A stretch of DNA of 64,000 nt from Escherichia coli (GTDB taxonomy: Bacteria; Pseudomonadota; Gammaproteobacteria; Enterobacterales; Enterobacteriaceae), in NCBI RefSeq assembly GCF_003334335.1, contig NZ_QOWQ01000007.1. One strand, given 5' to 3'. Made by a program: the position numbers. Below, one piece after another: positions 1 to 3,000 of the stretch (positions within the stretch are counted from its first letter, which is position 1; the number at the start of each line of letters is the position of its first letter).

Positions 1-3000
1 GCACCGGTGGAAACCAGATCGCAAATCGCATCCGCCAGTCCGGCGCGCGGGGCGACTTCAACAGAACCGTTCAGTAAGCAGGATTTAAAAGAGATGCCTT
101 TCTGGTCGAGATATCGCTTGAGCAGGTGAGGATAAGAGGTGGCGATACGTTTACCGTTTAAGGAGAGCGGGCCGTCCCAGGCTTCATCAACCGGCGTTGC
201 CAGCGAAAGGCGACAACCGCCGAAATCCAGACGACGCAGGGTAAAGTAGCGTGGATCCTCACCCTGGGCGCGGCGGTTAAGCAGCTCTTCTTCCAGCACG
301 TTTTCGCCGATAATCCCAAGGTCTACTACGCCATCCATTACCAGACCGGGAATGTCGTCGTCACGTACGCGTAGAATATCAATCGGCATGTTTTCTGCCA
401 TCGCGATCAGGCGCTGGGTGTGAAGATTGATTTTAATACCACAGCGCGCCAGTAATTCGCGTGAGTCATCACTTAAACGGCCGGATTTCTGCATAGCTAT
501 GCGTAAACGAGAGTTGTCTGTCATTTTGTTATTCCTCTTTAAACCTGTCTGAACCGTTATCAACCGCGCAATAAAAAAGCCCCCGGAAGGTGATCTTCCG
601 GGGGCTTTCTCATGCGTTCATGCACCACTGGAAGATCTGAATGTCTTCCAGCACACATCGCCTGAAAGACTAGTCAGGATGATGGTGATGATGGTGGTGT
701 TTAAATTGAACGCGTGTCATAAAAGTCTCTGTGAATGTTTATTCAACTGATGTCTTTTAACCTAAACCACTTTCACGTTAGAAAGCAAGGGCTTTTTTAT
801 ATATTTTATGGCGATGGATTTGTTTAATGAATGAGCGGGGAAAGGAGGGGGCTAAGAGGACTGTCCTCTAAGCTGACGGCACCAAAAATAGCGAAGCCTG
901 GATTTTCGTCTCACTGACAATACCTTGATCTACAAACTAATTAATAAATAGTTAATTAACGCCCATCATTGTACAATGAACTGTACAAAAGAGGAGATTG
1001 ACATGCGTACAATTAGCTACAGCGAAGCGCGTCAGAATTTGTCGGCAACAATGATGAAAGCCGTTGAAGATCATGCCCCGATCCTTATTACTCGTCAGAA
1101 TGGAGAGGCTTGTGTTCTGATGTCACTCGAAGAATACAACTCGCTGGAAGAGACGGCTTATCTACTGCGTTCCCCCGCTAACGCCCGGAGATTGATGGAC
1201 TCAATCGATAGCCTGAAATCAGGCAAAGGAACAGAAAAGGACATTATTGAGTGAAACTAATCTGGTCTGAGGAATCATGGGATGATTATCTGTACTGGCA
1301 GGAAACAGATAAGCGAATTGTTAAAAAGATCAATGAACTTATCAAAGATACCCGCAGAACGCCATTTGAAGGTAAGGGGAAGCCAGAACCCCTGAAACAT
1401 AATTTGTCAGGTTTCTGGTCCCGACGCATTACAGAGGAGCACCGTCTGGTATACGCGGTTACCGACGATTCACTGCTCATTGCAGCATGTCGTTATCATT
1501 ATTGAACAGATTCATTCATAGAATGAATTGTCAGTTTTGATACGCTAGCGTAGCCTTATAGATCTAAGGTGTATCAGGAGATAACGGATGAAAAAGGTCG
1601 CAATTGTCGGGTTAGGGTGGTTAGGCATGCCGCTGGCGATGTCACTTTCAGCGCGAGGCTGGCAAGTCACCGGGAGTAAAACCACACAAGATGGTGTCGA
1701 AGCGGCCCGAATGAGTGGCATTGATAGCTATCTGCTTCGCATGGAGCCTGAGTTAGTTTGCGATTCTGACGATCTGGATGCCCTGATGGATGTCGATGCG
1801 CTGGTCATTACGCTTCCGGCACGTCGTAGCGGCCCCGGCGATGAGTTCTATTTACAAGCGGTACAAGAGTTAGTGGATAGCGCGCTGGCCCATCGTATTC
1901 CCCGCATTATTTTTACCAGCTCAACATCTGTCTATGGCGACGCGCAAGGCACGGTGAAAGAAACTACCCCGCGTAATCCGGTAACCAACAGTGGACGAGT
2001 ATTAGAAGAACTCGAAGACTGGCTGCACAATTTACCCGGTACTTCGGTCGATATTCTGCGTCTTGCGGGGCTGGTCGGACCGGGACGTCATCCCGGACGC
2101 TTCTTTGCCGGAAAAACCGCGCCTGATGGTGAACATGGTGTTAATTTAGTCCATTTAGAAGATGTTATTGGCGCTATCACTCTGTTGTTACAGGCACCTA
2201 AAGGCGGACACATCTATAATATATGTGCGCCAGCTCACCCTGCGCGTAATGTTTTCTATCCGCAGATGGCCCGTTTACTGGGGCTGGAGCCTCCGCAGTT
2301 CAGAAATAGTCTGGACAGCGGCAAAGGTAAGATTATTGATGGCAGTCGGATTTGTAATGAACTGGGATTTGAATACCAGTATCCCGATCCGCTGGTAATG
2401 CCGCTGGAGTAAACGATCACGCCAGCAGGACGCCGCATGCACTGCAAGGGGGCGTGTATGAAACCACTGCTGGATGTGTTGATGATCCTCGATGCCTTAG
2501 AAAAAGAAGGCAGTTTTGCGGCGGCGTCGGCCAAACTCTATAAGACGCCGTCCGCTCTGAGTTACACCGTTCACAAGCTGGAAAGCGACCTTAATATTCA
2601 ATTGCTTGATCGTAGCGGTCACCGCGCTAAATTCACCCGTACCGGAAAAATGTTATTAGAGAAAGGGCGGGAAGTTCTGCATACCGTGCGAGAACTGGAA
2701 AAGCAGGCGATCAAACTGCATGAAGGCTGGGAAAACGAGCTGGTGATTGGCGTGGACGACACGTTTCCTTTTTCTCTGCTTGCGCCACTGATTGAAGCTT
2801 TTTATCAACATCATAGCGTGACGCGCCTGAAGTTTATCAATGGCGTACTCGGTGGTTCCTGGGATGCCCTGACTCAGGGGCGAGCGGATATTATTGTTGG
2901 CGCGATGCATGAGCCACCATCTTCCAGTGAGTTTGGTTTTTCACGGTTGGGCGATCTGGAACAAGTCTTTGCGGTCGCGCCTCATCATCCGTTAGCCCTG

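Follow-up and report, generated by a model that had tools for sequence, protein, structure and literature searches.

The minus-strand region at 571–720 of the analysed DNA is almost certainly the ribosome-mediated transcription attenuator of the Escherichia coli hisLGDCBHAFI operon. The window, that is, the whole stretch that was analysed, comprises 64,000 nucleotides. A his operon attenuator at 571–720 is what the original prediction had claimed, and the Rfam match, the open reading frame, the adjacency to hisG, and the alternative helices all agree with it. The limits 571–720 correspond to the Rfam match (571–694) plus the leader ORF (670–720). The attenuator is an intact, ordinary, and already-known element, and nothing in its sequence contradicts this reading. 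Its defining elements are the following:

571–694, minus strand: match to Rfam RF00514 His_leader (covariance-model search)
670–720, minus strand: hisL leader ORF, MTRVQFKHHHHHHHPD followed by a stop codon (translation; hisL annotation in identical E. coli records)
679–699, minus strand: seven His codons CAC CAC CAT CAT CAC CAT CAT, the sensing segment or region A (motif search)
1–524, minus strand: 5′ part of hisG (ATP phosphoribosyltransferase), the first structural gene under the attenuator (TIGR00070; annotated hisG in identical records)

The RF00514 match runs from 694 to 571 on the minus strand with 131.6 bits against a gathering score of 49 (E = 1.4e-21), and it is full length—model positions 1–126 of 126, hence not truncated. 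Many complete E. coli chromosomes carry the leader with 100% identity, and RefSeq labels it there as hisL or His leader region. The leader ORF has 16 codons and ends at a stop codon at 672–670. The seven consecutive His codons that had been read in the leader peptide are present at 699..679, and CAYx7 occurs nowhere else in the 64-kb window and in none of 100 shuffles. Downstream, hisG begins with its start codon at 524–522, 145 nt past the leader stop codon, and scores 159.4 bits against a TIGR00070 cut-off of 75.75; its ORF runs off the window start. Upstream of the ORF lie the elements expected for initiation:

751, minus strand: predicted transcription start site of the his leader RNA (numbering of PMC10989985)
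759–764, minus strand: likely −10 hexamer TAGGTT (sequence; ends 7 nt before the start at 751)
783–788, minus strand: likely −35 hexamer TTGCTT of the hisL promoter (sequence; 18 nt upstream of the −10 hexamer)

Judged by its sequence, TAGGTT is the likely −10 hexamer and is directly followed by an A+T-rich discriminator at 758–752. TTGCTT, which we take to be the −35 hexamer from its location with respect to the start at 751 and from the published his promoter, agrees with the consensus at 3/6 positions; because only these match, it is absent from the list of the consensus promoter scan. In Salmonella, ppGpp control works through the his −10 hexamer and the discriminator (PMC10989985). The numbering of the same paper fits only if +1 is 751: U49, G127, U128, and G129 then become t703, g625, t624, and g623, and the DnaA boxes, given as 46–56, 126–134, and 187–195, fall at 706–696, 626–618, and 565–557. 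The his leader RNA is described there as 180 nt long, and an RNA of this length starting at 751 would end at 572, just past the U-run.

The second line of evidence is the folding of the leader. The 188-nt leader has a minimum free energy (MFE) of −70.4 kcal/mol versus −41.2 ± 3.8 kcal/mol for shuffled sequences (z = −7.7), and 0 of 200 shuffles are as stable. It yields the classical chain of overlapping helices—A:B, B:C, C:D, D:E, and E:F—together with a helix that closes around the first two hairpins:

652–687, minus strand: A:B hairpin, 687–681 with 659–652 and 678–674 with 665–661 (MFE fold)
649–650, minus strand: predicted his pause site, RNA 3′ end U650, next base G649 (sequence compared with PMC9291695)
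643–670, minus strand: B:C helix, 670–660 with 654–643 (constrained folds)
629–650, minus strand: C:D hairpin, 650–644 with 635–629 (constrained folds; RNAalifold independently)
592–637, minus strand: D:E antiterminator, 637–630 with 599–592 (constrained nascent folds)
572–612, minus strand: E:F terminator (attenuator) hairpin (folding, covariation, RNAalifold)
573–578, minus strand: terminator U-run, six U (sequence)
623–699, minus strand: closing helix CACCAC (699–694) with GUGGUG (628–623), around A:B and C:D (MFE fold)

A G+C-rich hairpin with a U-run had been expected before hisG, and this is where it lies. Its arms UGAGAAAGCCCCCGGAAG and CUUCCGGGGGCUUUUUUA pair 612–595 with 589–572 over 18 bp, with a 5-nt loop AUCAC and −31.1 kcal/mol, and then comes the U6 at 578–573; the G+C-rich core comprises 14 bp (608–595 with 589–576). 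RNAalifold recovers the E:F terminator as well. A simple consensus terminator scan does not list the attenuator hairpin, perhaps, we think, because the stem extension uses up the U-run. This absence is a limitation of the scan, as the hairpin is evident from folding, Rfam, and covariation alike. At the other end of the leader, the A:B hairpin has −11.7 kcal/mol on its own, and its top—CCUGA/UCAGG, 678–674 with 665–661—is the his pause hairpin (for its role, see PMC9291695). The hisL pause is described with a hairpin at −30 to −11 and a G at +1 (PMC9291695). At the sequence level, G659 occupies position −10 of the predicted pause and matches the G−10 Y−1 G+1 consensus.

Folding of the region had been proposed in the original prediction as the way to reveal the alternative antiterminator and terminator structures, and these structures were indeed obtained, but only in nascent RNA that does not yet include segment F; at thermodynamic equilibrium, the terminator prevails in all cases. 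In the full leader at equilibrium, E:F has a probability of 1.00 in every ribosome state, and the switch becomes visible only in truncated nascent transcripts. Hence, the choice must fall during transcription and be kinetic, since no other structure comes near the stability of the terminator after F has been transcribed. In nascent RNA without a ribosome, A:B (P = 0.99) and C:D (P = 0.98) prevail, and C:D persists at 0.90 when the ribosome has reached the stop codon. For an A site on His codons 8–13, B:C reaches P = 0.80–0.96 versus 0.00 without a ribosome. D:E reaches 0.93–1.00 over the same codons and 0.92–1.00 when codon 14 is included, versus 0.10 with the ribosome at the stop codon. D:E (−15.2 kcal/mol) takes up the GGAAGAUC part of the 5′ arm of the terminator. 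In silico, the antiterminator thus appears mutually exclusive with the terminator and dependent on the position of the ribosome. For a ribosome on codons 1–6, the equilibrium model gives D:E and not C:D, which a kinetic model would probably not predict.

From the literature we infer that pausing, coupling to translation, and a response to histidine act on this leader as well. Transcription would start at about 751 on the minus strand, and the polymerase would pause at U650 behind the pause hairpin until the ribosome on hisL catches up. With plentiful His-tRNA(His), the ribosome would pass the seven His codons and reach the stop codon at 672–670, covering A and part of B. With the ribosome in this position, C would pair with D, leaving E free, and E:F would form once F is made. 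Transcription would then end in the U-run and release a leader RNA of about 180 nt. The hairpin of the terminated leader is a reported substrate of RNase III, which cuts it (PMC5371410). With scarce charged tRNA(His), the ribosome would stall in the His run and cover only A, so B could pair with C; D would then be free for E, the terminator would be blocked, and the polymerase would enter hisG. Without any translation, A:B, C:D, and E:F would form, making termination the default. Experiments on the Salmonella leader showed that readthrough goes up when His-tRNA(His) is limiting and that this needs translation of the leader (PMC4046918).

These structures are also kept in related bacteria. Of 5426 complete E. 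coli genomes, 5424 have the 188-nt leader, and in 4623 of these the identity is 99% or more. For a wider comparison, 105 distinct related leaders from Enterobacterales, Aeromonas, and Pasteurella were assembled. Across these, the terminating fold has 90.7% and the antiterminating fold 96.8% of cells paired versus 44–56% for slid controls, a comparison that favours the real folds insofar as the structures came from the window's own sequence. By helix, the paired cells amount to 95.6% for A:B, 98.3% for B:C, 98.6% for C:D, 94.9% for D:E, 95.4% for E:F, and 85.6% for the closing helix CACCAC:GUGGUG. Compensatory changes occur in E:F (C:G 70 / U:A 34 and G:C 70 / A:U 17) and in D:E (2/8 pairs), and 2/6 pairs of CACCAC:GUGGUG are compensated. 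Most stem positions are nearly invariant, as is the U-run among 106 leaders, and covariation is thin outside E:F, D:E, and a long-range helix described below. Near-invariance is expected for segments that are obliged to pair with two partners. All 14 divergent relatives tested, including Aeromonas and Pasteurella, pass RF00514, and hisG follows 125–219 nt past the leader stop codon in 98 of the 102 loci whose flanks are long enough. These data directly support the sequence elements, the family match, the exclusive helices with their in silico dependence on ribosome position, and the conservation.

The window as a whole is 99.95% identical to and collinear with strain LR-29-1, on which the gene map is based. 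Strain S3, the first best match, was set aside as map reference, since a full pdu operon breaks its collinearity with the window beyond about 11.8 kb. Among E. coli strains, the distal half of the hisL–yefM intergenic region varies.

Compared with the his leader of E. coli K-12 and Salmonella enterica (hisL, RF00514), nothing of substance differs. The peptide MTRVQFKHHHHHHHPD, the segments A–F, the pause hairpin and pause site, the 14-bp core terminator with its 5-nt loop and U-run, and the place before hisG are all the same; it is the same element. The attenuators trpL, pheL, thrL, leuL, and ilvL follow the same logic, in which a short leader ORF rich in cognate codons is combined with a pause site, alternative hairpins that overlap, and an intrinsic terminator, but they have other regulatory codons and another helix layout. 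For instance, his uses six segments (A–F) and seven consecutive regulatory codons, whereas trp uses four segments and two Trp codons. Matches to Thr_leader and Phe_leader stay below threshold here, at 22.8 and 21.5 bits versus 55, and come about through the terminator. In Firmicutes and Actinobacteria, according to PMC9413887, T-box leaders make the terminator/antiterminator choice at his genes reflect the charging of tRNA(His). Unlike the his leader, T-box leaders encode no leader peptide; the RNA itself directly binds the uncharged tRNA. The T-box model RF00230 gave no match, either across the window at its gathering threshold or within 520–1010 at E values up to 10.

Beyond the classical chain, covariation points to one further pairing that lies outside the RF00514 model:

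614–713, minus strand: long-range helix, GCGUUCA (713–707, hisL codons 3–5) with UGAACGC (620–614, D–E spacer) (covariation, RNAalifold)

The helix spans 6–7 bp, of which RNAalifold found 4 bp. Over 6 bp, 93.1% of cells are paired versus 8–52% in slid controls, and 5/6 pairs are compensated. Double changes occur in 28 cells versus 5.2 ± 2.1 in shuffles, and there are at least six distinct fully complementary haplotypes. In nascent RNA, the helix is predicted at P = 0.98 for the terminating states, and the value falls to 0.00 once the A site is at His codon 8. Competing with it in the MFE fold of the E. coli leader is an 8-bp helix between the 5′ UTR (748–741) and codons 4–6 (711–704), nearly isoenergetic at −70.4 versus −69.8 kcal/mol; this candidate was rejected, as the folds of 100 of the 102 related 5′ regions extracted lack it. 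No earlier description of the long-range helix was found in the literature searched, with the classical his papers of 1980–1996 lying outside that search.

As for its role, we would only tentatively propose that the long-range helix is an extra conserved structural layer—a clamp favouring termination, possibly also blocking re-initiation on hisL and explaining the conservation of RVQF—and we hold this to be rather less probable than its opposite. Together with CACCAC:GUGGUG, it would close a stem around A:B and C:D. It could form only when no ribosome sits on the early codons, would be made before E, and does not nest with D:E, so that both together would amount to a pseudoknot. The clamp idea follows from these three properties: the helix precedes E, needs uncovered early codons, and cannot nest with the antiterminator. 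A block of re-initiation is conceivable because the helix begins 7 nt after the AUG. The helix would also give a reason for the conservation of RVQF, an N-terminal stretch of the leader peptide that otherwise has no function.

Three other explanations of the locus were weighed against classical attenuation. The one that fares best, though still improbable, holds that the leader is mainly a DnaA-dependent riboswitch; at most, it would be a layer atop classical attenuation. In this proposal, DnaA on rDnaA boxes of the leader RNA (706–696, 626–618, and 565–557) blocks the ribosome and favours E:F (PMC10989985). According to the paper, immunoprecipitates of DnaA contain leader RNA, a dnaA mutant expresses his more strongly, and de-attenuation is 5-fold upon deletion of nt 48–54 and 3-fold upon deletion of nt 128–134; the boxes it names do sit at their given positions in the window. 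However, every box has two mismatches, and boxes of this quality are as frequent as chance predicts: 1261 in the window versus 1253 ± 31 expected, or about one per 51 nt. Within 565–752, there are 6 versus about 3.7 expected from the window-wide density, and measured against the 64-kb window, the leader is not enriched beyond chance. The study saw no binding in vitro, its authors regard direct binding as unproven, and point mutations in the boxes left wild-type attenuation unchanged (PMC10989985). The deletions, moreover, do more than remove boxes. Loss of 48–54 is a 7-nt deletion that shifts the hisL frame, so that the ribosome passes B, C, and D and stops only at a TGA at 620–618; this readthrough alone would explain the de-attenuation. 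Loss of 128–134 (624–618) takes parts of both closing helices, one of which, CACCAC:GUGGUG, is where boxes 2 and 3 pair according to PMC10989985.

The same two closing helices bear on a second, highly improbable explanation, in which the leader RNA is a mimic of tRNA(His) for tRNA-binding proteins, instead of or besides its interplay with the ribosome. This idea goes back to Ames et al. 1983 and is repeated in PMC10989985. With 713–707/620–614 and 699–694/628–623 enclosing two hairpins, the fold does look loosely like a cloverleaf, but it has two hairpins and not three. Neither tRNA model detected a cloverleaf on the leader: the Rfam model RF00005 gave no match at E up to 10 with permissive filters, and ARAGORN found no tRNA-like gene. 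The classical model, furthermore, already explains the regulation (PMC4046918).

Finally, it might be argued that an unrelated short ORF with a His run and an ordinary terminator, such as one ending a small RNA or an upstream gene, happen to lie near hisG without a regulatory link—and terminator hairpins alone do yield weak sub-threshold matches to many Rfam families, with nothing specific—but this can be practically dismissed, being contradicted by the full-length RF00514 match that takes in non-terminator helices, by alternative helices that interlock and switch, and by an arrangement with hisG kept in 98/102 loci of several gamma-proteobacterial families, while no upstream gene ends on the minus strand for such a terminator to serve, yefM and yoeB being divergent.

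The his attenuator is, hence, a landmark and not a discovery: with its surroundings, it places the window in the his region of the E. coli chromosome, and it puts histidine biosynthesis in the present strain under standard attenuation control. The long-range helix would offer a simple structural reading of the published deletion data that were credited to DnaA binding. If it proves to be undescribed, it could refine the textbook model of his attenuation.

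The seven consecutive His codons of the original prediction lie in an ORF on the minus strand, the leader-peptide gene hisL at 720..670 (ATG ACA CGC GTT CAA TTT AAA CAC CAC CAT CAT CAC CAT CAT CCT GAC TAG), which translates to MTRVQFKHHHHHHHPD before the stop. The CAYx7 pattern occurs only once in the 64-kb window and in none of 100 dinucleotide-preserving shuffles. A GC-rich hairpin with a U-run had also been read ahead of hisG, and is found: the arms UGAGAAAGCCCCCGGAAG (612-595) and CUUCCGGGGGCUUUUUUA (589-572) close the loop AUCAC at -31.1 kcal/mol, with a G+C-rich core of 14 bp (608-595 with 589-576) and six U at 578-573. 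The ORF after this terminator starts at 524 and stays open past the window start; its 174 residues in the window match the hisG profile TIGR00070 (159 bits versus a cut-off of 75.75). Folding of the 188-nt leader yields -70.4 kcal/mol, versus -41.2 +/- 3.8 for shuffles (z = -7.7). With ORF, hairpin, hisG match, and fold z-score all found, the observation of an attenuator at 571-720 is hence correct and far above chance.

Its identity as the his operon attenuator is borne out by the Rfam His_leader model RF00514, which matches 694..571 (minus strand) over 126/126 model positions with 131.6 bits (gathering score 49); with permissive filters, too, no other Rfam family reaches threshold in the leader region. 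Many complete E. coli chromosomes match the 531 nt around the leader at 100% identity, and RefSeq labels the corresponding positions in them hisL, "His leader region," and hisG, with yefM-yoeB divergent. Of 5426 complete E. coli genomes, 5424 contain the 188-nt leader (identity at least 99% in 4623), and the entire window is collinear with E. coli LR-29-1 at 99.95% identity (NZ_AP027515.1, 1786106-1850105). What the window carries is E. coli's known hisL attenuator, in intact and ordinary form.

Divergent from hisL lies the yefM-yoeB toxin-antitoxin pair (1003-1505, plus strand; NF008499 186.6 bits, TIGR02116 132.8 bits), directly preceded by a TGTACA-N6-TGTACA repeat at 969-988, which we take to be the YefM-YoeB operator. 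The hisL-yefM intergenic region holds an 11-nt inverted repeat, GCTAAGAGGAC / GTCCTCTAAGC (851-861 / 863-873, 1-nt gap). Intergenic query coverage reaches at least 80% in only 4213 of 5417 matching E. coli genomes, and IAI39 and MB20—partial intergenic matches among those listed—stop at ~839 and 852, beside the repeat, which suggests that it lies near the edge of a variable yefM-yoeB segment.

Further RNA genes of the window are:

3433-3507, plus strand, STnc240 (Rfam 68.2 bits, above gathering score)
25409-25484, minus strand, tRNA-Asn (GTT)
27817-27892, minus strand, tRNA-Asn (GTT)
29641-29716, plus strand, tRNA-Asn (GTT)
44027-44102, minus strand, tRNA-Asn (GTT)
45094-45183, plus strand, tRNA-Ser (CGA)
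54779-54868, minus strand, RseX (Rfam 97.7 bits, above gathering score)
63271-63357, plus strand, DsrA (Rfam 102.5 bits, above gathering score)

STnc240 sits directly upstream of yoeI, a tiny ORF, and plaP; loci of Rosenbergiella and Tatumella likewise have it close to the his leader. The four tRNA-Asn copies have identical Rfam scores, and two of them, flanks included, are 99% identical over 111 nt. No inserted island is found at the copy at 44027, where some strains carry the high-pathogenicity island. Between ldtA and a tRNA-Asn gene, a sugar-utilisation island (16092-25350) encodes two PTS systems (IIA, IIB, and IIC each), two regulators, an RpiB/LacA-family isomerase, a ribulose-phosphate 3-epimerase, and a 6-phospho-3-hexuloisomerase; strain S3 lacks it at that position. 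Beside cobU, 11786-12082 (minus strand) is labelled in the LR-29-1 record as a truncated pduV-like gene (EutP/PduV family, N-terminus missing). Strain S3 has a complete pdu operon there (~16 kb with pduF and pocR), and K-12 has the CP4-44 prophage. The position resembles the scar of a deletion in a variable locus. The 7983-nt gene at 35731-43713 (minus strand) for an Ig-like-domain protein is probably the adhesin gene yeeJ—intact in the LR-29-1 record, frameshifted in strain S3, and with internal repeats of ~830 nt at 83% identity (39248-40069 versus 39857-40678).

The leader arrangement extends to relatives. Scanning 100,044 representative genomes for the exact pattern of six His codons and then Pro-Asp-stop gave at least 120 loci. 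Among the matches listed, an ATG stands 3-10 codons 5' of the His run in 115 of 120, as a leader ORF of ~15-17 codons would give, and hisG follows 125-219 nt past the leader stop codon in 98 of the 102 loci whose downstream flank is 500 nt or longer; the other four are unrelated MAGs. All 14 divergent relatives tested pass RF00514 (75.8-117.8 bits), including Yersinia, Proteus, Providencia, Xenorhabdus, Dickeya, Aeromonas, and Pasteurella. In a MAFFT alignment of 106 leaders, again among the matches listed, 90.7% of cells are paired in the terminating and 96.8% in the antiterminating fold, versus 44-56% in controls whose partners are shifted by 1-3 columns. The terminator hairpin E:F (C:G 70 / U:A 34; G:C 70 / A:U 17 / G:U 15) and the base of the antiterminator D:E (G:C 53 / A:U 15) show clear compensatory changes. 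The remaining stem positions are mostly near-invariant, as expected of segments that each have two partners to pair with. The pause hairpin, C:D, and E:F are recovered as well by RNAalifold, whose prediction is not seeded with the fold of the window itself.

The minimum-energy fold holds the following helices, all on the minus strand:

687-681 with 659-652 and 678-674 with 665-661, A:B helix (A being the His-codon sensing segment)
650-644 with 635-629, C:D helix
699-694 with 628-623, closing helix
612-595 with 589-572, E:F terminator

The his pause hairpin is the top of A:B; U650 followed by G649, with G659 at -10, agrees with the G-10 Y-1 G+1 consensus of the hisL pause described in PMC9291695. 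The leader numbering of PMC10989985 (U49, G127, U128, G129, and box positions) agrees with the window only for +1 = 751, which places the 3' end of the 180-nt leader RNA given there at 572, directly past the U-run. TTGCTT (788-783) and TAGGTT (764-759) stand at appropriate distances as a putative hisL promoter. The 5' UTR carries a small palindrome, TGAAT-N4-ATTCA (745-741 with 736-732, minus strand), and 54 of 117 related loci among the matches listed have TGAAT-N3-5-ATTCA ahead of hisL; the palindrome may form a 5' stem-loop or bind a protein.

Folding had been named as the check for alternative structures, and both D:E and E:F were obtained. A 28-nt ribosome footprint was masked at each A-site codon in turn, and nascent RNA was folded up to the terminator loop, the stage without segment F. 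Nascent RNA without ribosome gives A:B 0.99, B:C 0.00, C:D 0.98, and D:E 0.00; when the A site is at any of His codons 8-13, B:C is 0.80-0.96 and D:E 0.93-1.00; with the ribosome at the stop codon, C:D is 0.90 and D:E 0.10. As modelled, this outcome is that of classical attenuation (summarised in PMC4046918). In the full leader, E:F has probability 1.00 whatever the ribosome state, and, hence, the outcome must be decided co-transcriptionally, before F emerges. One imperfection is that the equilibrium model favours D:E with the ribosome on codons 1-6, which we attribute to its ignoring the order of helix formation.

PMC10989985 proposes a DnaA-dependent riboswitch in the his leader and uses two deletions to argue for DnaA boxes in the leader RNA. 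However, its "rDnaA boxes," at two mismatches, are no more frequent than chance would give (1261 across the window versus 1253 +/- 31 expected), and its authors report that they found no DnaA-leader binding in vitro. Their strongest allele, a deletion of nt 48-54 (704-698), removes 7 nt inside hisL and thereby shifts its frame, so that the ribosome translates on to the TGA at 620-618, which should by itself prevent E:F; the deletion of nt 128-134 (624-618) takes out parts of both closing helices. The phenotypes are thus explicable by translation or structure. A tRNA(His)-like leader RNA finds no support from the tRNA models run on the leader. The combination of family match, interlocking helices, and an arrangement with hisG that is conserved rules out a chance ORF beside an unrelated terminator.

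Beyond these helices of the hisL attenuator, RNAalifold also proposes pairing of early leader codons with the spacer between D and E—when extended, GCGUUCA (713-707, codons 3-5) with UGAACGC (620-614) on the minus strand, 6-7 bp. Over six columns, 93.1% of cells are paired versus 8-52% in slid controls, with compensatory changes in five of six pairs. Double-side changes amount to 28 cells versus 5.2 +/- 2.1 in shuffles, a value reached in 0 of 500, and the covariation score, 0.220, ranks first in the leader. The helix occurs in at least six fully complementary haplotypes across genera:

Haplotypes of the long-range helix (5' strand / 3' strand)
GCGUUC / GAACGC, 47 sequences, many genera
GCGCUC / GAGCGU, Citrobacter
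GCAUUC / GAAUGC, Proteus, Photorhabdus, Entomohabitans, one Serratia
GUAUUU / AAAUGC, Providencia
GUAUUC / GAAUAC, Xenorhabdus
ACGUUC / GAAUGU, Acerihabitans

In E. coli, the full leader with this helix is nearly isoenergetic with the minimum-energy fold (-69.8 versus -70.4 kcal/mol). With the polymerase at 600-590, nascent RNA is predicted to form the helix at a probability of 0.98 without ribosome or with the ribosome at the stop codon, and of 0.00 when the A site is at the first His codon. The helix holds C and D inside and E outside, and nesting with D:E is impossible; on this folding model, it would clamp the termination-prone fold, and it may hinder renewed initiation on hisL. The Rfam His_leader model does not include this helix, and no mention of it was found in the accessible his-leader literature, which does not extend to the classical papers. 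In an otherwise ordinary attenuator, this covarying long-range helix is the only item that might repay further attention.
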